From Parcubacteria group bacterium (GTDB lineage Bacteria; Patescibacteriota; Patescibacteriia; Buchananbacterales; UBA6539): a DNA stretch of 64,000 nucleotides. The position numbers and the translations under genes are program-made. Positions 10,498-59,893 of the stretch are shown piece by piece. The stretch spans positions 1,171 to 65,170 of the forward strand of contig NYZP01000002.1 of assembly GCA_002687175.1 (NCBI GenBank), read 5' to 3'. Every line of letters starts with the position of its first letter. Position 1 is the first letter of the stretch. Under the pieces are notes generated by a model. The model saw nothing but the letters and a program-made list of their open reading frames with translations. It was not told the origin of the DNA and searched no databases.

Positions 10498-11853
10498 TTA
10501 ATTGTAAAGTCGCTCCTTAATCAACTTAACATCTTGGTTGATTTTCTCGTCTTCATCTAAAATTTTGGTAATTTTTAGATGAGCATGCATCGCGGTGGTG
10601 TGATCACGGTTTCCGATCTCTTGACCAATTGAGGGAAAAGAACTTTTTAATTCTACCCTCATTAAATACATGACAATTTGACGAGGCACCGCTAAATTCT
10701 TTTTTCGGCAGGAACCTAATAGGTCATCAATTTTAATATCAAAGAATTCAGCTACAATGTTAATTATTTGTTTAGGGGTTACTGATTTTTTACGCTGGGC
10801 CGAATAGATTGAAGACAAAATTTTTTTTACATTTTCTAAAATAGGTGCCGTACCATTTAATTGATGGTAGGCAATAATTTTATTTAAAGCACCTTCTAGC
10901 TCACGAACGTTGTTTTGCACATTAGTGGCGACATAAGCGATAGTTTCCTCATCAAGCTGGCAGTTCTTTTCCTTACATTTTGCTTTTAAAATAGCGGCCC
11001 TGGTTTCTAGATCTGGAGCAGAGATGTCAGCGATCATCCCCCACTCAAAACGTGAGATTAATCGACTTTCCATGGCTGGGATAGCCTTTGGTGCACGATC
11101 AGCAGTCATCACCACTTGTTTGTTGTTTTGGTGAAGGGCATTAAAGGTGTGAAAAAATTCTTCTTGAGTACTTTCTTTGCCTGCTAAAAATTGAACATCA
11201 TCAACTAACCAAACATCAGCTGAGCGATAAATATTTTTAAACTTATCAACTTTGTTAGTAGATATTGATTTTATGAAATCGTTGGTAAATTTTTCACAAG
11301 AGACATAAAGCACTCTTTTGTTAGGGGAACTTTCTAAGATTTTATTACCAATAGCCTGGGCTAAGTGAGTTTTACCAAGACCAACACCGCCATAAATAAA
11401 TAATGGGTTGTAAACTGCGCCTGGTTTCTCTGATATAGCTATGCTGGCAGCCTGAGCCAGCTCATTTCCTTTACCAATTACAAAATTATTAAACCCGTAG
11501 CGTTTATTAAGGCCAAATTCATTAATTCGGGGAGTTTCGGCAACAAATGTCTTGGCAATTTTCTCTTCAGCCTTTTTAATAATGATGTCGGCTTGATTTT
11601 TACCCTTAGTTTCCACCTGATAAGTAATAACCTTAACCTGATTATCAGTAATTTTCTGCAAGGCCTTGAGAATGGCGGAGTGGTACTTTTTTTCTAACCA
11701 GGCTTTAGTGAAAGTATTGGGTACACCAATGGTAATATTTTCACTATTGTAGGTATAGATAAAAGTATTTTTGAACCAAGTGGTAAAATTGGCTCGACTT
11801 AGGGTCAGCTCAAGCTCTCCTAGAGCTGCTTGCCAAATTTTTTGCTCCTCCAT
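10498..11853 (-). CDS. dnaA: Chromosomal replication initiator
   Basis: YNPLFIYGGVGLGKTHL, DDVQF, NVRELEGAL, RDHTT. Confidence 0.99.
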   Translation of the reverse strand: MEEQKIWQAALGELELTLSRANFTTWFKNTFIYTYNSENITIGVPNTFTKAWLEKKYHSAILKALQKITDNQVKVITYQVETKGKNQADIIIKKAEEKIAKTFVAETPRINEFGLNKRYGFNNFVIGKGNELAQAASIAISEKPGAVYNPLFIYGGVGLGKTHLAQAIGNKILESSPNKRVLYVSCEKFTNDFIKSISTNKVDKFKNIYRSADVWLVDDVQFLAGKESTQEEFFHTFNALHQNNKQVVMTADRAPKAIPAMESRLISRFEWGMIADISAPDLETRAAILKAKCKEKNCQLDEETIAYVATNVQNNVRELEGALNKIIAYHQLNGTAPILENVKKILSSIYSAQRKKSVTPKQIINIVAEFFDIKIDDLLGSCRKKNLAVPRQIVMYLMRVELKSSFPSIGQEIGNRDHTTAMHAHLKITKILDEDEKINQDVKLIKERLYN

Positions 11854-11939
11854 AAGTTTATGAGATGTTTATCGCATTGTCCCGCAAAAAGCGGGACGAT
11901 GAAGTAGTTTAAATTTAGTGACCACCCTATTATAGCACA

Positions 11940-12010
11940 ATGAGGTTATCCCCAAAACAGCTTTTAGTTAAATAAAATGTTAATAAATTGTTGATGAAGT
12001 GTGTATAATA
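11940..12010. promoter_or_regulatory. DnaA-box cluster upstream of dnaA
   Basis: TGTGTATAA at 12000-12008 (= TTATACACA), plus TTATCCCCA, TGTTAATAA, TGTTGATGA. Confidence 0.65.
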
Positions 12011-12092
12011 ATTTAACCCTTTTCTATATTTTGGTCAAGACCTTTGACTAAAGGATTGAAGCCTGATATCATATATTAGTAATTGCTAATAT

Positions 12093-12230
12093 ATGCCAAA
12101 AAGAACTTATCAACCAAAAAAACGTAAGCAAAAAAGAAAGCACGGCTTTATGGCGCGCTCTTCTAGCGTTGGTGGTAAAAATATTTTAAAACGCCGAAGA
12201 CAAAAGAAGCGAACTAAGTTATCAGCTTAA
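12093..12230 (+). CDS. rpmH: 50S ribosomal protein L34 (not in ORF track)
   Basis: Manual translation [45 protein letters not shown]. Confidence 0.97.
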
Positions 12231-12231
12231 T

Positions 12232-12573
12232 ATGTTGCCGGCTAGCAAGCGTCTAACCAAAGACAAGGATATAAAAAGAGTTAATAAAGCTGGACAGTCA
12301 TATTTTTCTCCACTTTTCAAACTAAAATACCTTGCCAATGATAAAAGTTTAAGCCGCTTTACGGTAGTGGTTTCTAATAAGGTTAGTAAGAAAGCTGTTT
12401 TGCGGAATCGTTTAAGACGACAGCTTAGAGAAATAATTAGGTTAAATTTAAAGAAAATTAAATCTGGCCATGACATTATCGTCTCTGTCAAAAGCCAATC
12501 ATTAGGCAAGACTTATCAGGATTTAGAAAATAGCCTTAACCTAGCTTTAAAAAAATCTAAATTATTAAAATGA
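12232..12573 (+). CDS. rnpA: RNase P protein component
   Basis: [17 protein letters not shown] motif; synteny. Confidence 0.96.
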
Positions 12574-12824
12574 TTAAAATATTTAATCCCGCTAAACTTC
12601 TCGTCCTTAAATTAATAAGGATTTATCAAAAGACAATGTCTTTTGACCATGGTGCCATGAGGCACTTTTTTCCTTATGGCTATTGTCGTTTTTATCCAAC
12701 CTGTTCTGAGTACGGACATCAAGCAGTCTCCAAGTACGGAGTCATTAAAGGTGGGTTAATTACTGCTTGGCGAATTTTACGGTGTAATCCTTGGAATAGC
12801 GGTGGCCACGACGAAGTATTATAA
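12570..12824 (+). CDS. yidD: Membrane protein insertion efficiency factor
   Basis: [18 protein letters not shown]. Confidence 0.96.
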
Positions 12825-13328
12825 TGCTAATTACAAATGTATGCGAATGCTGCGAATGGTACTAATAAACTGATTTACAATATAGTCAACATGGCGTTAA
12901 CTACTCATAAATGCTATGTTGCAAAAAGTAATCTATCCTGAGTTATCCTATCAAATTATTGGCACCTGTTTTCAAGTACATAATGAGCTGGGTCGCTTTT
13001 GTAAGGAAAAGCAATATGCTGATAGATTAGAACAATTATTGAGAGCTAATCAGCTAAGGTATAGCCGAGAAATAAAAATACCATTTGAATTTAGTGAAGG
13101 ACAAGTTGGTGGTAATATAGCCGACTTCTTAATAGCTAATAAAATAATTTTAGAATGTAAAGCTAAAAAATTTGTTACTAAAGATGACTATCATCAGGTG
13201 CAAAGGTACCTGAAAGCGACAAAAATAAAATTGGGTTTAATTGTAAATTTTAGAACTGTCTATTTAAGTCCAAAGAGAGTCATTAATTATTATTTGTAGT
13301 ATTCGTATAAATTCGTAAATTAGTATTA
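12822..13328 (+). mobile_element. Inverted-repeat-bounded element carrying the GxxExxY gene
   Basis: Arms 12822-12858 and 13291-13328 are imperfect reverse complements; interrupts the conserved yidD-yidC adjacency. Confidence 0.6.
12916..13299 (+). CDS. GxxExxY protein (PD-(D/E)xK-like)
   Basis: VHNELGRFCKEKQY, ADFLI, IILECKA, QVQRYL, LGLIVNF. Confidence 0.92.
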   Translation: MLQKVIYPELSYQIIGTCFQVHNELGRFCKEKQYADRLEQLLRANQLRYSREIKIPFEFSEGQVGGNIADFLIANKIILECKAKKFVTKDDYHQVQRYLKATKIKLGLIVNFRTVYLSPKRVINYYL

Positions 13329-13335
13329 TATTTTT

Positions 13336-14106
13336 ATGATTGAGCTATTTAACACATTTCTGGTAGTACCATTACTTAACCTTCTAGTATTTTTTTATAA
13401 TGTTATTCCAGGCCAAGATCTAGGAGTAGCGATTATTTTTTTAACCGTGGCCATTAAATTAGCTTTATATCCCCTGTCTCATCAATCAATCAAGTCACAA
13501 AAAGCTCTTCAGGATCTTCAGCCTAAAATGGAAGCGATAAAGAAACAGTTTAAGAATGACAAGGAAAGGCTGGCCAAAGAAATGATGGCGCTGTATAAAT
13601 CGGAAAAGGTTAATCCCCTATCTTCCTGTTTACCACTTTTAATTCAGTTACCTTTCTTGATCGCGGTGTTTCATGTATTTCGTACCGGAGTTGATTCAGC
13701 CAGCCTGGACTTACTATATTCATTCGTCGCAAATCCGGGAGAGTTAAATCCAATCGCTTTTGGTTTTTTAAATTTATCTAATCCTAATATAGTTCTGGCA
13801 GCTTTAACCGGTGGAGCTCAATTTTGGCAAACTAAGATGCTAATGTCTAAACGACAGCCAAAAGTCCCCGGGGCCAAGGATGAAGACATGATGGCAACCA
13901 TGAACAAACAGATGCTTTATTTTATGCCAATCATTACAGTAGTGATTGGGGCAACACTGCCAGCCGCCCTAATCTTATACTGGTTACTGACAACTGTTTT
14001 AACGGTGGCACAACAAAAATTGATGTTTTCCAAGAAGGGACAGAAGGAGAAAGACGATAATCAAGTAGAAATAATTGATAAACCTAATGAGAATCCTCAG
14101 CAGTGA
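13336..14106 (+). CDS. yidC: Membrane protein insertase YidC/Oxa1
   Basis: LQPKMEAIKK, NPLSSCLPLLIQLPFL, LYW. Confidence 0.96.
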   Translation: MIELFNTFLVVPLLNLLVFFYNVIPGQDLGVAIIFLTVAIKLALYPLSHQSIKSQKALQDLQPKMEAIKKQFKNDKERLAKEMMALYKSEKVNPLSSCLPLLIQLPFLIAVFHVFRTGVDSASLDLLYSFVANPGELNPIAFGFLNLSNPNIVLAALTGGAQFWQTKMLMSKRQPKVPGAKDEDMMATMNKQMLYFMPIITVVIGATLPAALILYWLLTTVLTVAQQKLMFSKKGQKEKDDNQVEIIDKPNENPQQ

Positions 14107-14371
14107 ATTAATCAATTTGCCAGTGTATGCCCAAAATGGACAAAATTTGGGTAGAATAGATTCTTTTGAGGTTGACGTTGATGCTCACACCATCTTACGT
14201 TATCATATTAAAACAGGCTTGATTAAGGGCTTATGGCATGAACAGTTAGTGGTTGCTCAAAGCCAAGTTATCTCTATTTCAAAAACTAAAATGGTGGTAA
14301 AGGACGGAGTTATTAAAAAACCGGCCCTTAGTCTTAAAAAGGCGAGGTTGGCATCTCCGGCTACTAAGTAA
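14087..14371 (+). CDS. PRC-barrel domain protein
   Basis: SELINLPVY...GQNLGRIDSFEVD pattern; ATG at 14087. Confidence 0.8.
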   Translation: MRILSSELINLPVYAQNGQNLGRIDSFEVDVDAHTILRYHIKTGLIKGLWHEQLVVAQSQVISISKTKMVVKDGVIKKPALSLKKARLASPATK

Positions 14372-14435
14372 CAGTTTACAAACAAAAAAGCCGAGACATT
14401 GAATTGTCTCGGCTTTTTCTATTCAGTTTTATGGG

Positions 14436-15200
14436 TTAAAACATTCGATTCTTGCCGACTATTACCCTTAATTTTTTAGGAACGATTTCAATTTTAACCG
14501 GAGTTTTTAGAATTTTTTGTCCATCGGTGACTACTGGCAATGAGTCTCTACTTCGTATGGAGATTTTTTTAAAAGGGATGACACTACTGTTGGCCGAAGT
14601 TGTTTTTTTAAATATTTGTGAAAAGCCAGAGGCTAGGGGTTTAATCAGAATTTCCAGTAGACCATCTTGGGGGTTGAAATAACTGCCCTGGCCTGGCGCG
14701 GCCACTAACAATGGACGGAGATTGCAAATACTAATTTCATTATGGTTCTGCGGAGTAACTTTAAATTTATCTTCACACTCGATAGTTACTTGCCCGCCAG
14801 AAACTGTTATGCTGGACAGAAAATAAGTATTATTAACTTTGCCCAAGTCAATTTTTTCAATAATTCTGGCCGCTAAAACGTTGCAGGCATCCTCTTGGGA
14901 TGGAATACCCAGTATGGTGGCTATTTTATTTTCTGCCCCGACTGGAATATAACCAACAGCGGTATTAAACTGCGCAGCCAGATTGATGATCTGACTAAAT
15001 GTTTTGTCATTGCCTACTACCACTATAGTTTTAATACCGTTTCTCACCTCTTCAGTTAATAGCTCGCCAATGTTTCTTAATGGCGACAGGCGAAATATTT
15101 TGCCACCAATACCAAGATCAGTTAATCTGGTTTCTATTTTAGCCAGAAAGCTGTTGTATTTTTTATTATTTAAAAAGGAGTCGTAAAGATGCAAGTACAT
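14436..15200 (-). CDS. Diacylglycerol-kinase-like family protein
   Basis: VVVGNDKTF, GYIPVG..NKIA..LGI, IDLGKVN, DGLLEI. Confidence 0.8.
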   Translation of the reverse strand: MYLHLYDSFLNNKKYNSFLAKIETRLTDLGIGGKIFRLSPLRNIGELLTEEVRNGIKTIVVVGNDKTFSQIINLAAQFNTAVGYIPVGAENKIATILGIPSQEDACNVLAARIIEKIDLGKVNNTYFLSSITVSGGQVTIECEDKFKVTPQNHNEISICNLRPLLVAAPGQGSYFNPQDGLLEILIKPLASGFSQIFKKTTSANSSVIPFKKISIRSRDSLPVVTDGQKILKTPVKIEIVPKKLRVIVGKNRMF

Positions 15201-19647: not shown

Positions 19648-22419
19648 TTATTGAATTGGGTTAAGACTGCCCCAATTGTTCCCTACTTCTATATGGGTCT
19701 CTACCGGAGTTTTTAGTTTATAAACTTCTTCCATTTTAGTTTCAACAAATTTGGCTACCTTTTTAAGGTCTTGGTCAGGCACTTCAAAAACCAGTTCATC
19801 ATGCACCTGGAGAATCATTTTAGTTTTTTCTGATATTTCTGGTAAACCTTTATCTATTTCAATCATCGCTAACTTCATCAAGTCAGCGGCAGTTCCTTGA
19901 ATGGGATGATTAATGGCTGCTCGCTCGGCTCCAGCCCTAACTTGTTGAATATTAGAATTTATTTCTGGTAAATAACGACGACGACCAAAAAAAGTTTCAA
20001 CATAACCTTTTTCGGTCGCTAGATCTTTAACATCTTCTAGGTAGTCGTTAATTTTAGAGTGAACATCAAAGTAACGACTAATAAAATCTCGGGCGTCTTG
20101 ATAGCTGATGTCAGCGGTTTGGGCTAGACCATGAGGACCCTGGCCATAAATAATTCCAAAATTAATTGCCTTGGCGGCATAGCGCATTGGTTTAGTAACT
20201 TTTTCTAAAGGCACCTCATTAATTTCAGCGGCGGTACGGCTGTGAATGTCTTCACCTTTTTTAAAACTATCAATCATTCTTTTGTCATTAGCCAGCGAAG
20301 CAATTATTCGTAGTTCAATTTGTGAATAGTCAGCCGACAGCAGTTTGAATCCTTTGGGAGCAATAAAACCTTTTCTAATTTGTTGTCCCAGCTCAGTTCT
20401 GATAGGGATATTTTGTAGATTTGGGTCTGATGAAGATAACCGACCAGTGGCAGCGACGGTTTGATTAAAGCTGGTGTGGATTCGATTGTTTGAATCAACC
20501 AGCTTTGGTAGAGCATCTAGGTAAGTTGATTTTAATTTAGCCAGCTCACGAAATTTTATAATGTGATCAACAATCTTATGTTCGCCCTGGAGTTTAATGA
20601 GCTCTGAAGCAGCAGTAGAGATACCAGTCTTGGTACGGGCCAGACCCTCGGTTGGAATTTTAAGTTTATCAAATAAAACCTCCTTAAGTTGTAGCGGTGA
20701 TGCAATGTTAAATTTGGTTTTGGCCAGTTTATGAATTTTGTTTTCTAAGGCTATTATGTCCTTGCCAACCTGGATACCCATTTTGTTGAGGAAAGCTGTA
20801 TCAATGAGTACACCATTTTTTTCGGTGTTAGCCAGCGCAGTAATCAGTGGGACTTCAATTTTTTCCAGTAAGCCCAAGTTATTTTTACTTTTTAATTCCT
20901 TGGTTAAACCAGCAACTAAACGCCAGGTAAAGTCCGCGTCTTCGCAAGCATAGTCGGCTACTTTATCAAGTGGTACTTCCTTCAAAGTAATTTGGTCTTT
21001 ACCCTTACCGATAAGATCAGTAATTGGTTGCATTTCATGCCCCAGTTCAGTAAACACTAGACCATCCAGGTTATGCTGTCTACTACCCGGATTAATTAGG
21101 TAAGAAGCAATCATGGTATCAAAAGATATCCCTTTTAATTCCAGCCCTGCGCTATTTAAGACTTCCAAATCAAATTTTATATTATGACCAATTTTTTTTA
21201 TTTTCTCATCAGCTAAAATGGGGCTGATTATTTCTAGCCAGGGTTTCTGAGCCGGTTCGCCTTGGCTCGCGCTCGGCGAGACAGGTAAATAATAAGCCGT
21301 ACCATTTTGCCAACAAAAACTGAGGCCTAAAAGTTCTGAATTAAATGGATCAAGACCGGAAGTTTCTGTATCAACAGCAAAAACCTTCTGGCTTTTTAGA
21401 TCATTAACAAATTTGGTAAAGTCAGCCTCTGTCTTGATCAGTGTATATTTTTCATTTTTTACAATTTTTGATTCAGCAGGTTTAGCAGTAGAGCCAAAGT
21501 TAAAACTGTCTTGAGCTTTAGTTTTGCCAGTTTGTAAATCTTTGGGTAACTTGGCAATGAGTGTCCGAAATTCTAACTCCTGAAATAGTGGCATTACTTT
21601 ACCAATATCATACTTTTCTATTTTGGCGTCAGACAACTTAAATTTAATTGGCACATCATCAACCAAGATGACTAATTTTTTTGACATCATTGCTTCTTTT
21701 TTTTGATCCTTTAGTAAACCACGATATCGATCAGATATTTTTTCAGAGTCAATGTTTTTATAAATATTGTCCAAAGTCTTAAACTCACTAAGTAAGTTAA
21801 TTGCCCCCTTGTCACCAATACCGCGAATCCCAGGAATATTGTCTGATGGGTCGCCCCGCAAAGCCTTGTAGTCAATCATTTGTTCCGGACCCAGGCCACC
21901 ATAACGACGCTTCACCGCCGCAATATCATAGGTAATGGTGTCGGACATCCCTTGGCGCATAGTAAAAACCTCGGTGTTATTATCAACTAGCTGTAAAGCA
22001 TCCATATCACCAGTCACAATAACCGACTTTATTTTTTCAACATCTTTGTCTTTAACTAAAGTAGCAATGACGTCATCAGCTTCATAACCTTTCTTTTCAT
22101 AAATTGGTATATTAAAAACAGAAATTATCTCCTTCACTCGAGGCAGTTGATCATAAAGCTCGTCTACTTGTTCAGCTCGGTGAGCCTTATAGTCTTCAAA
22201 CTGTTTATGGCGAAACGTTGGCGCCGCCAAATCAAAAGCCACGGCCATGTAATCTGGTTTCAAATCTTTTAAAACCTTAACCATGATCATTGTAAAACCA
22301 TAGACAGCATTTACTATCTCCCCAGATTTCGTGGAAAGGGTTGGCGGAATGGCATGCCAGGCGCGATGAAGTAAAGCATTCCCGTCTATTACTATAAATT
22401 TTTCTTTATTTTTTGACAT
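19648..22419 (-). CDS. polA: DNA polymerase I
   Basis: 5'-3' exonuclease (IDGN..HRA, GDPSDNIPG), 3'-5' exonuclease (DTET), polymerase (ADYSQIELR, QVHDEL). Confidence 0.99.
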   Translation of the reverse strand: MSKNKEKFIVIDGNALLHRAWHAIPPTLSTKSGEIVNAVYGFTMIMVKVLKDLKPDYMAVAFDLAAPTFRHKQFEDYKAHRAEQVDELYDQLPRVKEIISVFNIPIYEKKGYEADDVIATLVKDKDVEKIKSVIVTGDMDALQLVDNNTEVFTMRQGMSDTITYDIAAVKRRYGGLGPEQMIDYKALRGDPSDNIPGIRGIGDKGAINLLSEFKTLDNIYKNIDSEKISDRYRGLLKDQKKEAMMSKKLVILVDDVPIKFKLSDAKIEKYDIGKVMPLFQELEFRTLIAKLPKDLQTGKTKAQDSFNFGSTAKPAESKIVKNEKYTLIKTEADFTKFVNDLKSQKVFAVDTETSGLDPFNSELLGLSFCWQNGTAYYLPVSPSASQGEPAQKPWLEIISPILADEKIKKIGHNIKFDLEVLNSAGLELKGISFDTMIASYLINPGSRQHNLDGLVFTELGHEMQPITDLIGKGKDQITLKEVPLDKVADYACEDADFTWRLVAGLTKELKSKNNLGLLEKIEVPLITALANTEKNGVLIDTAFLNKMGIQVGKDIIALENKIHKLAKTKFNIASPLQLKEVLFDKLKIPTEGLARTKTGISTAASELIKLQGEHKIVDHIIKFRELAKLKSTYLDALPKLVDSNNRIHTSFNQTVAATGRLSSSDPNLQNIPIRTELGQQIRKGFIAPKGFKLLSADYSQIELRIIASLANDKRMIDSFKKGEDIHSRTAAEINEVPLEKVTKPMRYAAKAINFGIIYGQGPHGLAQTADISYQDARDFISRYFDVHSKINDYLEDVKDLATEKGYVETFFGRRRYLPEINSNIQQVRAGAERAAINHPIQGTAADLMKLAMIEIDKGLPEISEKTKMILQVHDELVFEVPDQDLKKVAKFVETKMEEVYKLKTPVETHIEVGNNWGSLNPIQ

Positions 22420-22494
22420 GGTTTAGGTTCTTAGGTTTTTAGCTCTTTAGTTTATTAATCAAATCCCTAAGAAGCTAAAAAGCTACTACCTAGC
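22420..22494 (-). repeat. Gene-less 8-mer tandem/inverted repeat hairpin abutting the polA start codon
   Basis: 22421-22442 GTTTAGGTTCTTAGGTTTTTAG identical to 54033-54054; opposite arm 22465-22494. Confidence 0.8.
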
Positions 22495-22546
22495 ATTATA
22501 ACATTCTTCGGAGATTCAAGCCTATTTATAGGGTAGTTATAGGTAT

Positions 22547-22575
22547 TTGACACTATAGTATGGTATAGGTATAAT
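22547..22575 (+). promoter_or_regulatory. Sigma70 promoter of the suf operon
   Basis: TTGACA-17 nt-TATAAT. Confidence 0.8.
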
Positions 22576-22602
22576 TAAAATACTAGTAATTTAATAGGAT
22601 TT

Positions 22603-25262: not shown

Positions 25263-26234
25263 ATGCCTACAAAGACCAAGTCAAAGACCTTAAAATTTAC
25301 ACCACATGATCTGATACAACAGATTGAAGGGTATGAACAGCTTAAAGCCAAAGGGTTAACGGTGAACAGTTTAACCAAGGCCTCGGTTTTAGCTAAGAAA
25401 AAAATTGACAGATTTTTACCTAAGAAGCTGAAGTCTGTTTTGGTTATTGAAGTACCGGCCGAAACCGAAGCGGTTATTAAATTTACCAATCCCATTTTTT
25501 CTCTTAAAATTAATCTTTGTTTTGTGGTTGGTGCCAGAGCCAAAGTAACTATTTTTGATAATCAGCAACCAGCCCAAGATGCTAGCAATGAAGGCGGTGT
25601 ATATGCTATAGCAGACAAGGACAGTTTGGTTGACTATCTGATCGTCAACAGTAAGCAACCCAATACCCAGATGTTTTACGCTGCCTACCCCAGCCAAGGT
25701 ACTAAGTTTAACTGGTATTTAGTGGGTAAGCTTAACGGTGAAAAACATGATATTACGGTGGTAATTAATCATCTATTAGATAAGAGTTGGGGAACCATAA
25801 CTTCAGCCATTGATTTTGGTAAAAATTCAAAATCAATTGTTAAATTAATTAACAATCATCAAAGTAAAGGGAGTCAGGGTGATATTGTTTTTAAAGGCCT
25901 AGGAAAAGATAATGCTCGGGCCAGGATTGACGGCTTAATAGAAATTGGTAAAAAGGCAATTGATACCAATTCTTATTTACAAGAGGATGTTTTATTGGTT
26001 TCGCCAGGTAGTAATATTGATGCTCAACCAAATTTAGAGATTTTAAATAATGAAGTAAAGGCCTCTCATGGTGCAACTTTGGGAAGTGTTGATCCTAAGG
26101 TTTTGTTTTACTTAATGTCTCGAGGCCTTTCTGCCAGTCAAGCCGAGAAGCTTATCATCGGTGGTTTTTTAGGGAATATTACTCGTGATATTGAAAATGA
26201 GTTAGTGGCTGAACAGTTTAAAAATAGCTTGTAG
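25263..26234 (+). CDS. sufD: SufD-family Fe-S assembly protein
   Basis: PNLEI..EVKASHGAT, FYLMSRG; operon position. Confidence 0.88.
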   Translation: MPTKTKSKTLKFTPHDLIQQIEGYEQLKAKGLTVNSLTKASVLAKKKIDRFLPKKLKSVLVIEVPAETEAVIKFTNPIFSLKINLCFVVGARAKVTIFDNQQPAQDASNEGGVYAIADKDSLVDYLIVNSKQPNTQMFYAAYPSQGTKFNWYLVGKLNGEKHDITVVINHLLDKSWGTITSAIDFGKNSKSIVKLINNHQSKGSQGDIVFKGLGKDNARARIDGLIEIGKKAIDTNSYLQEDVLLVSPGSNIDAQPNLEILNNEVKASHGATLGSVDPKVLFYLMSRGLSASQAEKLIIGGFLGNITRDIENELVAEQFKNSL

Positions 26235-26262
26235 CTTGTAGCTTGTAGCTTGTAGCTTGTAG
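26225..26262 (+). repeat. Heptamer tandem repeat (TAGCTTG)x5
   Basis: Five exact units plus TAG; contains the sufD stop and ends 7 nt before the sufS ATG. Confidence 0.95.
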
Positions 26263-43624: not shown

Positions 43625-43701
43625 CGGGGTGTGGCGCAGTTGGCTAGCGCGCGTCGTTTGGGACGATGAGGTCGTGGGTTCGAGTCCCACCACCCCGACC
43701 A
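43625..43701 (+). tRNA. tRNA-Pro(TGG)
   Basis: Cloverleaf, anticodon loop TT-TGG-GA, encoded CCA. Confidence 0.96.
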
Positions 43702-43744
43702 TCACAACATAGCGTATTTATTATTGTTTGGACAGTATTAAAAT

Positions 43745-44097
43745 TGTCATCCCTGCGAAAGCAGGGATCCAGAAACGCTATGATGACCTATTACGTTTAT
43801 ATACTTGCCAGTAAAAGAAATGGAACGCTCTATGTTGGTGTTACTAATGACTTGGCAAGAAGGGCCTATGAGCATAGAGCAGGCTTAATTAAAGGTTTTA
43901 CAAAAAAATACGGGGTTAAGGTGCTAGTTTATTTTGAAGAGTTTGACGATATTGGTTTTGCAATTCAGAGGGAGAGAAATTTAAAAAAATGGAAACGTGA
44001 CTGGAAATTAAATCTAATTGAGAGTTCTAATCCGGACTGGGAAGATTTATACTTTGAATTAGATTAATACTGGATCCCTGCTTTCGCAGGGATGACA
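43745..44097 (+). mobile_element. GIY-YIG gene bounded by perfect 28-bp REP-like inverted repeats
   Basis: TGTCATCCCTGCGAAAGCAGGGATCCAG (43745-43772) and its exact reverse complement (44070-44097). Confidence 0.75.
43780..44067 (+). CDS. GIY-YIG nuclease family protein
   Basis: YYVYILAS..NGTLYVGVTNDL.RR..EH, AIQRERNLKKWKR.WK, NPDWEDL. Confidence 0.93.
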   Translation: MMTYYVYILASKRNGTLYVGVTNDLARRAYEHRAGLIKGFTKKYGVKVLVYFEEFDDIGFAIQRERNLKKWKRDWKLNLIESSNPDWEDLYFELD

Positions 44098-46612: not shown

Positions 46613-46709
46613 AATTAGCAAATGGCAAATAGCATTTTGCAAATCTGCTACAATCGATTAGCCATTAGCCATTAGCCATTAGCCATTAGCCATTAGCCAT
46701 TAGCCATTT
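46613..46709 (+). repeat. Heptamer repeat hairpin, (TTAGCCA)x7 arm abutting the infB ATG
   Basis: Seven exact units 46658-46706; short complementary arm TAGCAAATGGCAAATAGC upstream. Confidence 0.9.
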
Positions 46710-49055: not shown

Positions 49056-50027
49056 ATGGAAATTTCCGAAGTAAGTCAAAAAATTCATTCGCAAATAAAT
49101 AAAGCGGAACATATTTTACTAATTGCCCATCAAAATCCCGATGCTGACTGTTTGGGTAGTTTGGTGGTATTTAGTTCTTGGTTGGAATCTTTAAATAAGA
49201 ACCATACCAGATTTTGTTTACATCAACCACCACCAAATCTAACTTGGTTAGTTAATTTTGAACCTTTGGTTAATGACCCCGAATACTTGATCAAGCAGCC
49301 TTATGATTTGGTGATAGTTTTAGACTCTGGTGATTTAAAATATGCAGGTGTAGACAATATTTTACCAAAACTTAGTCCTCAGCCAAAAGTTATTAATATT
49401 GATCACCATGCCACTAACCAGAATTTTGGTGATATTAATCTAGTAAACACCCAATCAGTTTCGACGACCGAAATAGTTTACCAACTTTTTAAGACCTTAA
49501 AGATCAGGATTGATGCCAAGGTGGCCAGCGCGATGTTGGCAGGCATCATCTATGATACCTATAATTTTACCAACCCTAATACTAATCATCAATCATTGGA
49601 AACTGCTTCTCAGCTACTTTTGTCCGGTGCCCAGCTAGGCACTGTCAGTGATTCAATCCTAAAAACTAAAAGTATTGATACTTTAAAAATTTGGGGAGAA
49701 ATTTTAACACGCTTAAGTCACTGCCATAAATTTAATGTAGTCAGTACAGTTGTTACCCGTCAGGACTTAGCCGATAATTTAGCTGATAGTGAAGTAACCG
49801 AAGGAGTAGCTAATTTTTTAAATAATTTAACAGGCGTCAAGGCTGCGCTGATCTTACAAGAACAGGCAGACGGTTCTATCAAGGGTAGTTTTCGAACTAA
49901 TAATGACTTGATTGATGTCTCAAAATTAGCTAGAATATTAGGTGGTGGAGGCCACAAGAAGGCCGCCGGGTTTAAGATCAAAGGCCAGCTAAAAAAGACG
50001 AGAAGTGGAAGTTGGCAGATTGTGTAA
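49056..50027 (+). CDS. DHH/DHHA1 phosphoesterase (NrnA-like)
   Basis: HQNPDADCLGS, NIDHH, GGGGHKKAAG. Confidence 0.92.
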   Translation: MEISEVSQKIHSQINKAEHILLIAHQNPDADCLGSLVVFSSWLESLNKNHTRFCLHQPPPNLTWLVNFEPLVNDPEYLIKQPYDLVIVLDSGDLKYAGVDNILPKLSPQPKVINIDHHATNQNFGDINLVNTQSVSTTEIVYQLFKTLKIRIDAKVASAMLAGIIYDTYNFTNPNTNHQSLETASQLLLSGAQLGTVSDSILKTKSIDTLKIWGEILTRLSHCHKFNVVSTVVTRQDLADNLADSEVTEGVANFLNNLTGVKAALILQEQADGSIKGSFRTNNDLIDVSKLARILGGGGHKKAAGFKIKGQLKKTRSGSWQIV

Positions 50028-50030
50028 GTG

Positions 50031-50108
50031 AATATAGAATCTGGAATGTGGAATTAGGATAAAAGTCTAATCCCCTATTCCAGATTCCTAATTCCTAATT
50101 CCTATATT
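50031..50108 (+). repeat. Heptamer inverted-repeat hairpin abutting the clpP ATG
   Basis: Left TAGAATC-TGGAATG-TGGAATT, loop GGATAAAAG, right CTATTCC-AGATTCC-TAATTCC-TAATTCC. Confidence 0.85.
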
Positions 50109-52499: not shown

Positions 52500-54026
52500 A
52501 TGCAAACAATTTATTGGCTTATAGCGCTATCCTTAGGAATAATTAGTGGGATAGCTTTTGGTTATCAATTAAGAAAAATTTGGGCGGTAAAACGTCGTGA
52601 TACCATTGAAACCAAAGTTGAATCTTTACTTAATGAAGCCAAAGCAAGACAAAAAGAAATTTTGTTACAAGCTAACGACAAGGCTTTGGCAATTTTAGAT
52701 GAGTCTAAACAAGAAGGTAAAGAAAAGCAGCAAGAGTTAGTAAGATCACAACAGCGATTAGAAAAACGTGAAGGTCTTTTTGACCAACGTATCTTAGAAT
52801 TAGAAAATAAAAAGCAAGAATTAGTAGAAAAGGCAGAAAAAGTAGAAGCAGTGAAAGGTGAAATTGTTAAAATTAAAGAAGAGCAGATGGCTAAATTAGA
52901 AAAGGTTGCTAAGTTAACTAAAGAAGAGGCTAAAAATATTCTTCTAGAAAATACTGAAAAGGATATTAAGGACGATTTAGTAGGAAGAATTAAAAAACTT
53001 AACGATCAGTCATCTCTAGAGCTGGATCGTAAGGCTAGAGAATTAATGTCTTTGGCAATTCAGCGTTGCGCCGTGTCCCACGCGGCGGAAAGTACGACTA
53101 CTACTATTGATTTACCCTCAGATGAAATGAAGGGTCGAGTCATTGGTCGTGAAGGACGAAATATTAGAACGATTGAACGTTTAACCGGGGTGGAAATTAT
53201 TGTTGATGACACCCCTAACGCTATCACCGTTTCCGGGTTCTCCCCTATTAGACGGCATGTGGCCAAAAAAGCCTTGGATAAACTAGTGTTAGACGGCAGA
53301 ATTCATCCAGCTAAAATTGAAGATGCTATCGATGAAGCTAAAAAAGAATTGGCTAATGAAATTCAAGAAGCCGGCGAAAATGCTGTGTATGAATTAGGCA
53401 TAACTGGTTTAGATCCTAAATTGGTTCAAATTATTGGTCGGTTAAAATATCGAACAAGTTATGGACAGAATATTTTACAGCATTCAATTGAAATTGCTCA
53501 CCTAAGCACTCTCTTGGCAAAAGATTTGGGGGCTGATGTTACTATCGCCAGAAAGGGTGGATTGATGCATGATATTGGTAAAGCAGTTGACCATGAAGTT
53601 CAAGGGGGACATCCGGAAATTGGGTATGATATCTTAAAGAAATTTGGCGTACAGGAAGAAGTGGCTTACATTGCCAGAGGTCACCACGAGGATAATCCAA
53701 AAACCATTGAAGCTGTTATCGTAAAAGTTGCGGACGCCATTTCTGGTGCTAGACCAGGTGCCCGTAAAGATACTTACGAGCAGTATTTACAACGTCTAGA
53801 AGACCTAGAAAAAGTGGCTAACAGTTTTGACGGTGTTGAAAAAACTTATGCCATTCAAGCTGGCCGAGAAATTAGAATCTTTGTTGTGCCAAGTGAAGTT
53901 GATGATTTAGGAGCTCATAAATTGGCTAAAGAAGTGGTTAAAAAAATAGAAGCTGAATTAAAGTATCCAGGTGAAATTAAAGCAACAGTAATCCGTGAAA
54001 CTAGGATTATTGAATACGCTCGGTAG
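52500..54026 (+). CDS. rny: Ribonuclease Y
   Basis: TM, coiled coil, KH (MKGRVIGREGRNIR), HD (HDIGK), ADAISGARPGAR. Confidence 0.98.
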   Translation: MQTIYWLIALSLGIISGIAFGYQLRKIWAVKRRDTIETKVESLLNEAKARQKEILLQANDKALAILDESKQEGKEKQQELVRSQQRLEKREGLFDQRILELENKKQELVEKAEKVEAVKGEIVKIKEEQMAKLEKVAKLTKEEAKNILLENTEKDIKDDLVGRIKKLNDQSSLELDRKARELMSLAIQRCAVSHAAESTTTTIDLPSDEMKGRVIGREGRNIRTIERLTGVEIIVDDTPNAITVSGFSPIRRHVAKKALDKLVLDGRIHPAKIEDAIDEAKKELANEIQEAGENAVYELGITGLDPKLVQIIGRLKYRTSYGQNILQHSIEIAHLSTLLAKDLGADVTIARKGGLMHDIGKAVDHEVQGGHPEIGYDILKKFGVQEEVAYIARGHHEDNPKTIEAVIVKVADAISGARPGARKDTYEQYLQRLEDLEKVANSFDGVEKTYAIQAGREIRIFVVPSEVDDLGAHKLAKEVVKKIEAELKYPGEIKATVIRETRIIEYAR

Positions 54027-54493
54027 CTAGGTGTTTAGGTTCTTAGGTTTTTAGGGATTACTGCGTAATCAACATAGCGTTTTTATTCATAATAACAATG
54101 AAACGCTATGACAAAACTATTTTCTTATAAGGACTTAATTTATTGGCAACGATCAATGGATTTAGTAGTAGCTATTTATCAGTTAGCCAGCCATTTTCCT
54201 AAAACTGAAATTTATGGATTAGCATCTCAGATGAAACGATCATCAATTTCTATTCCCTCTAACGTTGCCGAAGGTAGAAGGAGAAGTAGCCGAAAAGAGT
54301 ACCGTCATTTTTTAAATATTGCTTATGCTTCTGGAGCAGAATTAGAGACCCAAATTGAGATAGTAAAAAGATTACCCTTTGGAAAAACTTTAAATTTTAA
54401 AATAGCTGATAGTTTGTTAGAAGAAGTAATGAAAATGTTAAATAAAACTTTTTCGACACTTGGCTCTAACAACCTAACAACCTAACAACCTAG
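54027..54493 (+). mobile_element. 8-mer tandem inverted-repeat element carrying the four-helix-bundle gene
   Basis: Arms 54027-54056 and 54464-54493 complementary at 25 of 30 positions; interrupts the rny-ymdB adjacency. Confidence 0.65.
54108..54485 (+). CDS. Four helix bundle protein (23S rRNA IVP-like family)
   Basis: YKDL..WQ, FPKTEIYGLASQMKRSSISIPSNVAEG, FLNIAYASGAELETQ. Confidence 0.94.
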   Translation: MTKLFSYKDLIYWQRSMDLVVAIYQLASHFPKTEIYGLASQMKRSSISIPSNVAEGRRRSSRKEYRHFLNIAYASGAELETQIEIVKRLPFGKTLNFKIADSLLEEVMKMLNKTFSTLGSNNLTT

Positions 54494-54496
54494 ACC

Positions 54497-55291
54497 ATGA
54501 AAATATTGTTTTTTGGTGACATCATCGGCAAGCTTGGTCGTAAAGCTTTCGTCAAGATACTCCCAGAACTTAAACAGGAGTATCAGCCAGATTTAGTTAT
54601 TGCTAATGTAGAAAATTTAGCCCATGGCGCTGGTGTAACAGCCAAAACGCTCAGTGAAATAGTTGAAGCCGGGGCAGATTTTTATACTTCAGGCAACCAT
54701 ATTTTCTCTAAGCCTGAAGCGGAGAGCCTGCTTAATGATCCAGCTTCAAATTTGATTAGGCCGGCTAACTATTTTGCTGATAAACCAGGAAAAGGATTCA
54801 AGGTTATCGAGGTTGGATCAAGATCACTTTTAGTGATTAATTTAATTGGTCAGGTTTTCATGAAAGATGAGGTTGATTCACCATTTGAAAAAATTGATGA
54901 GATTTTATCCGAAGTTGATCATAAAAATTTAGCTGGTATTATCGTTGATTTTCACGCTGAAGCTACCTCGGAAAAAAATGCTTTTGGTCATTATGTTGAT
55001 GGTCGGGTTAGTGCAGTTTTAGGAACACATACCCACATACCCACAGCTGATCAAAAAATATTGTCCAAAGGTACGGCCTACGTTACTGATATTGGTATGG
55101 TTGGTGAGTACGATTCAGTCATTGGAGATAAGAAGGAACCAATTATCGCCAGTTTTTTAGCTGGTGAAAAACCAAAGATTGAAGTTGCTGAAAGTGGTGA
55201 AGCCATAGTCTCGGCCATACTTTTGGAGATTGATCCTGATACCAAAAAGGCAACAGGGATTAGTCGCGTAGACAGAAAAATTAAAGTATAG
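54497..55291 (+). CDS. ymdB: YmdB-family metallophosphoesterase
   Basis: GDIIG..GR, NVEN, GNH, DFHAEATSEK, GTHTH. Confidence 0.93.
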   Translation: MKILFFGDIIGKLGRKAFVKILPELKQEYQPDLVIANVENLAHGAGVTAKTLSEIVEAGADFYTSGNHIFSKPEAESLLNDPASNLIRPANYFADKPGKGFKVIEVGSRSLLVINLIGQVFMKDEVDSPFEKIDEILSEVDHKNLAGIIVDFHAEATSEKNAFGHYVDGRVSAVLGTHTHIPTADQKILSKGTAYVTDIGMVGEYDSVIGDKKEPIIASFLAGEKPKIEVAESGEAIVSAILLEIDPDTKKATGISRVDRKIKV

Positions 55292-59113: not shown

Positions 59114-59806
59114 TTAATTCCATTTTTTATTTTCTAAGGCTTTGCTAGCCGCATTAACTTGAGCCTCTTGTTTGCTAGAGCCGGTACTGGTTCCGATCAA
59201 TTCTTTTTCTAAGTATACACCGACTTGAAATTTTTTGTCATGATCGGGGCCACTCTCTTTTAATACTTTGTAACTTGGAGTAATACCTAATTTTTCCTGG
59301 GAGATCTCTTGAAATTTACTTTTGGGATCAAGGTACAATTCATTTGATAAGATGTGGGGTAGCTCCGGAATTAGATTTTCGTTAATAAATTTACTAGCTT
59401 GTTTGTAACCGCCATCAAGATGAATAGCACCAATTAAAGCTTCATAAGTATTTGCTAAAATATAATTTCTAGCCTTACCATTGGTATCCTTAGCTTCCCC
59501 CTTACTTAAATACAAATAATCCTCCAAATTAATTTTTCTGGCTAGTTTAGCCAACATTTGACTGTTTACAATACTGGCACGCCAGTTAGTAAGTTCACCT
59601 TCAGGATTAGGATAGTTTGAATAAAGATGCTCGGTGGTAACAAGTTCCAGAACAGCATCACCTAAAAATTCTAGCCGTTCATTATGACCTAACTTAAAAC
59701 CAGAGTTTTCGTTAATATAGGAACGATGGACAAAGGCTTGTTTAAGTAGATCTTTATTTTTAAAATTAACTTTTAGCTTTTTTTCAAGTTTAGAAAAATC
59801 CTTCAT
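59114..59806 (-). CDS. rnc: Ribonuclease III
   Basis: HRSY, NERLEFLGDAVL, dsRBD (DPKS..QE, GPDH); likely start ATG 59806. Confidence 0.97.
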   Translation of the reverse strand: MKDFSKLEKKLKVNFKNKDLLKQAFVHRSYINENSGFKLGHNERLEFLGDAVLELVTTEHLYSNYPNPEGELTNWRASIVNSQMLAKLARKINLEDYLYLSKGEAKDTNGKARNYILANTYEALIGAIHLDGGYKQASKFINENLIPELPHILSNELYLDPKSKFQEISQEKLGITPSYKVLKESGPDHDKKFQVGVYLEKELIGTSTGSSKQEAQVNAASKALENKKWN

Positions 59807-59817
59807 GGTAGAGATTA

Positions 59818-59874
59818 TAGCTGGTAGCTCGTAGCTTGTAAGTTTTATCCTTACCAGCAACCAGCTTCAAGCTA
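59818..59874 (-). repeat. Heptamer inverted-repeat hairpin upstream of rnc
   Basis: Minus strand TAGCTTG-AAGCTGG-TTGCTGG-TAAG, loop GATAAAA, CTTA-CAAGCTA-CGAGCTA-CCAGCTA. Confidence 0.85.
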
Positions 59875-59893
59875 GGTTATGTTAGTTAGAGTT

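Follow-up and report, generated by a model that had tools for sequence, protein, structure and literature searches.

RAYT/REPIN systems consist of a small enzyme gene that lies between inverted repeats together with gene-less hairpins of the same repeat, and the enzyme (RAYT) is an HUH tyrosine transposase. A different arrangement is found in the intervening sequences (IVSs) of 23S rRNA. In Coxiella, sections of one report describe an IVS with terminal inverted repeats and a 28-bp stem that is cut by RNase III, in which GACAGAT heptamers precede a four-helix-bundle ORF (PMC4990558). An excerpt of a study on CPR bacteria states that rRNA inserts sometimes encode this same four-helix-bundle (IVP) domain (PMC11270868). 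The features of MITEs (ERIC, RUP, Correia/NEMIS, and RPE) that are used for comparison below are taken from passages of a single article (PMC2229807). MacGregor described intergenic TAACTGA heptamers in Beggiatoaceae, Cyanobacteria, and Bacteroidetes, for which, according to parts of that paper, "no mechanism is evident" and horizontal spread is suspected (PMC4679880); its main text contains none of the words nuclease, four helix, or intervening. The PDDEXK_3/GxxExxY proteins have been tabulated as a family of unknown function with multiple transfers, in an entry that describes neither flanking arms nor mobility (PMC3424549), and the portion of another article that names the family mentions it incidentally (PMC8934634). 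No published description of GxxExxY cassettes was found among the open-access papers of PMC and bioRxiv, supplements aside.

The window analyzed here is a 64,000-nucleotide stretch of contig C2 of a 1.12-Mb genome of the Patescibacteria type with a GC content of 36.7%. The gene order in the region of interest is dnaA-rpmH-rnpA-yidD-yidC, in which rnpA, yidD, and yidC were confirmed by HMM and the genes that we take to be dnaA and rpmH were recognized from their sequences. At the junction between yidD (12570..12824, + strand; PF01809, E 8e-26; TIGR00278 above cut-off) and yidC (13336..14106, + strand; PF02096 and TIGR03592 above cut-off) lies a 511-bp unit with an intact ORF, the gene of a 127-residue GxxExxY PD-(D/E)XK nuclease (12916..13299, + strand; PF13366, E 7e-27; TIGR04256) whose stop codon is within the right arm of the unit. 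Sequence of the stretch, whole or in part, is present in seven DNA runs; one 747-nt contig among them matches positions 12700-13446 without differences and may come from the source sample. The genome has one GxxExxY gene, and five four-helix-bundle genes are enclosed in similar arms. The yidD-yidC locus is an unremarkable member of what is itself an unusual family.

The original prediction described two arms, at 12822-12858 and 13291-13328, and these read as it gave them. Alignment by hand also returned the 8 substitutions (6 G:U, 1 A·C, and 1 G·A) and the single gap that it had counted, and the positions are correct: the yidD TAA marks the start of the left arm, with 7 nt between the end of the right arm (13328) and the yidC ATG (13336). 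The full stem is slightly longer, pairing 12820-12861 with 13288-13330 through 40 pairs (33 Watson-Crick and 7 G:U); as an RNA duplex it has an energy of -41.2 kcal/mol for the + strand versus -18.7 for the - strand. When only Watson-Crick pairs are scored, the stem reaches 46 versus 25.2±3.9 in dinucleotide shuffles (0 of 300 shuffles reach 46). Among 221 genes of similar size in the genome, 11 score at least 36, and five of these are GxxExxY or four-helix-bundle cassettes. Folding of the whole region gave z = -2.39, with 2 of 100 shuffles as good. In a search of Rfam no family was found over the element, and no self-splicing intron core was found at E<=1; a group I or group II intron was rejected on this ground and because the loop is almost wholly ORF.

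The stem is closed at its outer end by a clamp, TATAA at 12820..12824 (+ strand), which includes the yidD TAA stop (12822-24) and pairs with TTATA at 13326..13330 (+ strand), 5 nt before the yidC ATG; the same clamp is found in the homologue L043, which is 71% identical. The left arm (12825..12866, + strand) consists of five degenerate TRCNAAT heptamers beginning at 12825, 12832, 12842, 12851, and 12860, and the right arm (13292..13325, - strand) of four inverted heptamers at 13292, 13301, 13311, and 13319. An inner hairpin at 12886..12921 (+ strand; z -2.6 on the + strand and -1.4 on the - strand) starts with a variant of the genome-wide motif TCAACATAGCG and buries the ATG of the GxxExxY gene. 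Since the motif is present inside only 8 of 189 GxxExxY cassettes, this hairpin is probably host-derived.

Rather than a perfect repeat that has decayed, each arm is an array of a degenerate heptamer. Across 87 related cassettes an arm has a median of four units; A and G are about equally frequent at position 2 of the heptamer, and position 4 is unconstrained, with 149 of 290 opposed units matching there when 133 are expected within elements. Opposed units match somewhat better than within-element chance, which suggests a role for some pairing or for copying from one arm to the other. Just outside the first unit, 2-4 bases vary between lineages and are mirrored within an element (83, 68, and 63% versus 36, 34, and 30% with arms swapped), and the distribution of the arm motif over a quick protein tree is clustered (14 changes versus 34 shuffled). 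Such arms are found around 107 of 128 GxxExxY loci from genomes and 57 of 61 from metagenomes versus 11 of 221 control genes. The genome set of 137 loci was reduced by 2 duplicates, 5 partial genes, and 2 loci with short flanks, and the 107 that pass the stem threshold include the window; the metagenome set of 80 was reduced by 14 near-duplicates and 5 short sequences.

The encoded protein belongs to the GxxExxY family with TIGR04256 and PF13366 scores of 90.9 and 94.5 bits versus cut-offs of 35 and 22 bits. In the window copy the first G of the motif that names the family is F28; the residues E31, D70, E80, K82, Q94, and Y98, which correspond to the catalytic E, D, (D/E)xK, and QxxxY, are intact. 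Among 188 copies, E31 is conserved in 187, D70 in 187, K82 in 185, Q94 in 184, and Y98 in 185, and 184 have E or D at position 80. The predicted model (pLDDT 95.7) has a minimal PD-(D/E)XK fold for which the nearest Foldseek matches are Cas4, AddAB, and lambda exonuclease, the best being the Cas4 protein SSO0001 (E 7e-4); the VIA-align Z scores of 8.1-7.7 are middling. No sequence match to the protein was found in the PDB and no homologue in viral contigs. Codon comparisons, with dN/dS values of 0.09-0.15 in the four unsaturated pairs out of six, show that the nuclease is under purifying selection. This includes copies that stayed at one site, such as L094/L158 (pS 0.24, pN 0.02), and in several same-site pairs the resident protein is conserved about as well as the flanks.

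The excess of G:U pairs in the stem was the basis of the earlier proposal that selection acts on an RNA stem. For a comparison that favors neither strand, the arms were aligned by Watson-Crick pairs only and the mismatches were then counted on the coding strand. In the window copy alone the excess is not significant (6:1, p=0.125; 7:2, p=0.18). In genome copies (106 of 127 loci passing the stem threshold) the ratio of G:U to A·C is 229:208 (p 0.34), with 40 versus 38 elements and 63:58 among isolated mismatches; the duplex energy is better on the coding strand in 53 of these copies and on the opposite strand in 52, and a skew equal to that of the window is found in 1 of 106. Independent metagenome copies (57 of 61 loci) have a ratio of 98:123, and the pooled ratio in 163 GxxExxY cassettes is 327:331 (95% CI of the G:U share 0.46-0.54; L241, a duplicate of L054, is counted in both totals). 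The stems of 44 tRNAs of the window's genome, used as a positive control, give 34:3. A G:U bias across many elements, the lack of which the original prediction had named as its own refutation, is absent from the GxxExxY cassettes and from the four-helix-bundle cassettes as well (53:71; 28 of 33), and the inferred selection on an RNA stem did not hold up. Additionally, transversions exceed transitions among the mismatches of genome copies (801:437). Most of the wobbles in the window copy fall at free R/N positions of the heptamer; four of them arise at position 2, where the family-wide ratio is 25:27, and the right arm differs from that of its sister L043 by three C-to-T changes at this position. 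The G:U-rich stem is therefore a property of the window copy, an outlier, and not a family trait. C-to-T mutation on the non-template strand is well established, so even a family-wide excess of G:U would be confounded.

Empty sites had been suggested as a further check, and here the expected presence/absence polymorphism was confirmed: none of 19 genomes from the same family has a GxxExxY gene between yidD and yidC. The gap is 5-29 nt in ten of these relatives and 51-167 nt in nine. Repeat hairpins made of other units are seen by eye at this junction in 8 of the 19 (L009, L012, L013, L014, L019, L020, L021, and L322), so the junction looks like an insertion hot spot. The closest homologue fetched, L043, is from the same-family genome G005 (the Candidatus Buchananbacteria record L049 is identical to it) and has near-identical arms with the same ends, and it is located between a Mur-ligase-family gene and topA. 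This junction is empty in the window's genome, where it reads TAA-AT-ATG, and is 0-2 nt or overlapping in three other relatives; the fifth genome has other upstream genes. The topA match of the window's genome (G000:C34:1737-3186, - strand) is split over two frames and has a stop at about codon 100, which is possibly a frameshift or an assembly error. Genome G152 has two 87%-identical copies (L062/L116) at unrelated sites with common ends. Clean filled/empty pairs were found among congeners (L166/L194 and L175/L205), and in two cases the site is taken by another repeat remnant; L040 was left out of the comparison as its upstream flank did not align. In keeping with an insertion sequence, the same unit is present at unrelated sites and the orthologous sites are empty. 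These results demonstrate that a discrete unit of arms and gene changes its genomic address.

The 188 copies fall into about 167 junction clusters, which is an upper bound, and some junctions have been hit by other repeat families or by distant GxxExxY homologues (30-35% identity). The distribution is patchy (8 of 20 genomes in the family, 41 of 151 in the class, and 25 of 201 in the phylum), with up to 8 copies per genome, and broken copies occur. No circular or joined form was found in the contigs of 8 runs and no joint in 6 DNA runs. In metagenome contigs a degenerate pattern returned 0 empty alleles, and no near-identical empty allele was seen. The window copy begins and ends with TA; family-wide, TA is found at the end of 20 of 95 clamps versus 13 of 101 inner dinucleotides, and no consistent target-site duplication emerged. 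The direct repeat AGTATTATA at both ends was considered as a target duplication and rejected, since it is the palindromic TATAA/TTATA clamp and is not general.

The placement of the cassettes is strongly directional. The gene has the same orientation as both called neighbors in 83:0 cases; among the 163 cassettes the sense to antisense ratio is 108:3 for the upstream neighbor and 112:3 for the downstream neighbor, and by homology it is 103:3 upstream (one an artefact) and 121:2 downstream. The median position of the stem ends is -1 nt relative to the stop codon upstream (n=80) and +4 nt relative to the following ATG (n=96), as would be expected where the gaps between genes are already short (quartile 3 nt, median 36 nt). 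A promoter scan gave a result at chance level (9 versus 9.2). Cassettes L044 and L048 lie directly behind a leader that is T-box-like by its motif and upstream of thrS-like genes.

Whole cassettes, arms included, are translated in frame inside host genes at L078, L133, L112, L141, and L146. Flank homology confirmed the split genes for the first four, which are at two sites and are in frame and stop-free (both flanks were identified at 80 of 196 loci); the fifth, L146, is in frame by eye, which makes about three independent events in all. By their motifs we take the split hosts to be helicase (recG-like), lepA-like, and leuS-like genes. The two lepA-like inserts occupy one site in distant genomes, and read-through fusions are present in L060 and L134. 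In-frame intragenic copies argue against RNA splicing, as spliced units should tolerate out-of-frame insertion; with about three independent events this evidence is suggestive and not conclusive.

Gene-less relatives of the cassette are present in the same genome. Between two tandem minus-strand genes, at about 8577-8665 of contig C5 (G000:C5), lies a gene-less hairpin. Its right arm and clamp are nearly identical to those of the yidD-yidC cassette, and it is probably a deletion derivative; it is the only gene-less TRCNAAT hairpin in the genome. Short-period repeats occur in 39 of 984 gaps of the genome versus 10 of 594 shuffled gaps, and many are gene-less inverted heptamer hairpins. Gene-less arrays or hairpins of 7-8-nt repeats are found in intergenic regions of the window at 22419-22602, 26225-26262, 46657-46708, 50027-50108, and 59806-59893, the last being just upstream of an RNase III gene (59129-59788, - strand). 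At about 43700-43800 of the window a tRNA-like 3' end is followed by a variant of CAACATAGCG and a long palindrome with REP-like GGATCC cores. A four-helix-bundle (PF05635) gene between inverted TTAGG../CCTAA arrays (54023-54497, + strand) extends from the upstream stop to the next ATG and has the design of the GxxExxY cassette with a different gene, and four more such genes are located elsewhere in the genome. The motif TCAACATAGCG has 11 exact occurrences genome-wide versus 0.47 expected, and many of them precede a hairpin and a run of Ts. Its sites in the window are 12886-12896 and 54069-54079, and 21 of 33 four-helix-bundle genes have it in the 200 nt upstream.

We consider it somewhat probable that the cassette is a mobile element whose movement takes place at the DNA level and involves the action of its own predicted nuclease on the repeat arms. 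In this view a protein would recognize the heptamers as a repeated motif on strand-symmetric DNA, be it duplex, cruciform, or either single strand. Cleavage by the Cas4/RecB-like nuclease would occur in the arms or in gene-less hairpins that match them, and the recombination or repair machinery of the host would then insert a copy of the cassette. Most surviving copies would be those placed between a stop and a start codon, or in frame within a protein loop, and in sense orientation, since a cassette without an evident promoter remains part of the mRNA. The 40-bp stem is the predicted fold of the transcript, and, by analogy with the same design in 23S rRNA, host RNase III may cut it as a by-product without rejoining. 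Near-identical cassettes at different junctions, orthologous sites that are empty, the recurrence of the arm in gene-less hairpins, and the lack of G:U bias are consistent with this reading. Two features fit badly with it, the orientation and the purifying selection on resident copies; they suggest cycles of the homing type, coupling to transcription, or some benefit to the host. A near-absolute orientation is not given by a symmetric DNA mechanism alone and would need strong selection or a link to transcription. Purifying selection on same-site copies is unexpected for a purely selfish copy unless it is repeatedly re-homed, so a host benefit or addiction is conceivable. These features limit our confidence in movement at the DNA level, and since unrelated four-helix-bundle genes share the arm design, the nuclease may not be the mobilizer. 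The lack of circular or joined forms in the contigs, the lack of a consistent target-site duplication, and the slightly better than chance match of opposed units also weigh against this reading.

The same orientation could be explained by an RNA-level intervening sequence, in which an mRNA stem is selected for excision, with or without rejoining, or for translational coupling of yidD and yidC. The 40-bp stem favored on the + strand of the window copy, stem ends near the upstream stop (median -1 nt) and the downstream ATG (+4 nt), the RNase III gene, and the precedent of the Coxiella IVS, described in part of its report with a 28-bp stem, GACAGAT heptamers, and RNase III cutting (PMC4990558), agree with this idea. 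We regard it as quite unlikely, as the G:U bias is absent from 163 GxxExxY and 28 four-helix-bundle cassettes versus 34:3 in tRNAs, transversions outnumber transitions by 801:437, the split host genes found are all in frame and stop-free, and the stop and start distances may simply follow from short gaps. It is also conceivable, although unlikely, that the heptamer hairpins came first and spread alone or through a factor encoded elsewhere, serving as landing pads for GxxExxY and four-helix-bundle genes that are passengers, swapped by arm recombination and kept by homing-like cycles. Gene-less hairpins among the repeat-bearing gaps (39 of 984 versus 10 of 594 shuffled), the other hairpins seen by eye at yidD-yidC in 8 of 19 relatives, single junctions taken by distant GxxExxY genes (30-35% identity) or other repeat families, and an arm design common to two unrelated protein families argue for this order of events. 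Arms, clamp, and gene nevertheless travel together between unrelated sites with sharp common ends (the window cassette L001 with L043, and L062 with L116), the arm motif follows the protein tree, and the single gene-less TRCNAAT hairpin of the genome resembles a deletion derivative. Least probable, and in our opinion very doubtful, is a domesticated or addictive module whose nuclease aids the host (in repair, processing of incoming DNA, or defense) or punishes loss, with the arms as an autoregulatory operator. Purifying selection in situ, the similar conservation of protein and flanks in several same-site pairs, and a modeled fold that appears closest to the Cas4, AddAB, and lambda-exonuclease nucleases speak for such a role, against which stand the patchy presence, the up to 8 copies per genome, the approximately 167 sites, and the broken copies.

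A broader proposal, which we put forward tentatively, is that the GxxExxY and four-helix-bundle cassettes belong to a so far unrecognized class of mobile elements. Inverted heptamer arrays would be recognized by a minimal nuclease of the Cas4/RecB type, which would insert the unit in a strand-specific way where a stop and a start codon meet in transcribed DNA, and the 23S IVSs and the orphan heptamers between genes of many phyla would be stranded copies and remnants of it. If this is true, the GxxExxY and four-helix-bundle/IVP families, both large and of unknown function, and the unexplained intergenic heptamers would become one testable system. The origin and spread of rRNA intervening sequences would gain a candidate enzyme and substrate, and a 127-residue nuclease that places a 500-bp unit between stop and start in core operons would be an unusually compact insertion tool. 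The analysis yields a candidate substrate motif (TRCNAAT arrays plus the clamp) and reciprocal filled and empty sites, and the finding of stems without an RNA-type wobble signature is a negative result that counts.

Compared with the known systems, the cassette resembles RAYT/REPIN in having an enzyme gene, inverted repeats, and gene-less hairpins; its protein has a PD-(D/E)XK fold, which is assigned by Pfam and NCBIfam, and the HUH tyrosine transposase that defines RAYT was not found, so this class was rejected. MITEs, as described in passages of the article cited above, share with it inverted ends, long stem-loop transcripts, an intergenic and co-transcribed location, gene-less copies, and, for some families, in-frame fusions (PMC2229807). 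Unlike MITEs, the cassette carries its own gene, its arms are degenerate heptamer arrays and not one conserved TIR, and it has no IS630-type transposase. A unit of 511 bp with an intact ORF is not a MITE in the sense of a non-coding element under 200 bp, although the gene-less derivatives do fit. The TAACTGA arrays likewise end a few nucleotides before start codons and overlap stop codons, but in the parts of the paper that describe them they are mostly direct repeats with a regulatory role (PMC4679880).

The closest likeness is to the 23S IVSs of Coxiella and Leptospira (S23p/PF05635). In the partial accounts used here, these are about 450-500 nt, have terminal inverted repeats and a long stem, and share with the cassette 5' arm heptamers, one small ORF in the loop, and a patchy distribution; the GACAGAT heptamer of the IVS also fits the xxCxGAT class of arms seen among cassettes. 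The five PF05635 genes of the window's genome have the IVS design between protein genes. The cassette differs in that it lies between protein genes at many sites and its ORF is PD-(D/E)XK (PF13366) and not S23p; no rRNA was found beside the 20 loci checked, and there was no rRNA match at 11800-14500. IVSs are excised by RNase III, and the RNase III gene in the window makes cutting of the cassette transcript possible by analogy. Of the idea that the unit is cut out like an intervening sequence, one part thus stands, an insert with IVS anatomy (stem, heptamers, and small ORF); precise removal with rejoining is disfavored, as the intragenic copies are in frame. The cassette is built like a 23S rRNA IVS in its stem and heptamers, yet its location and its ORF place it outside that class.
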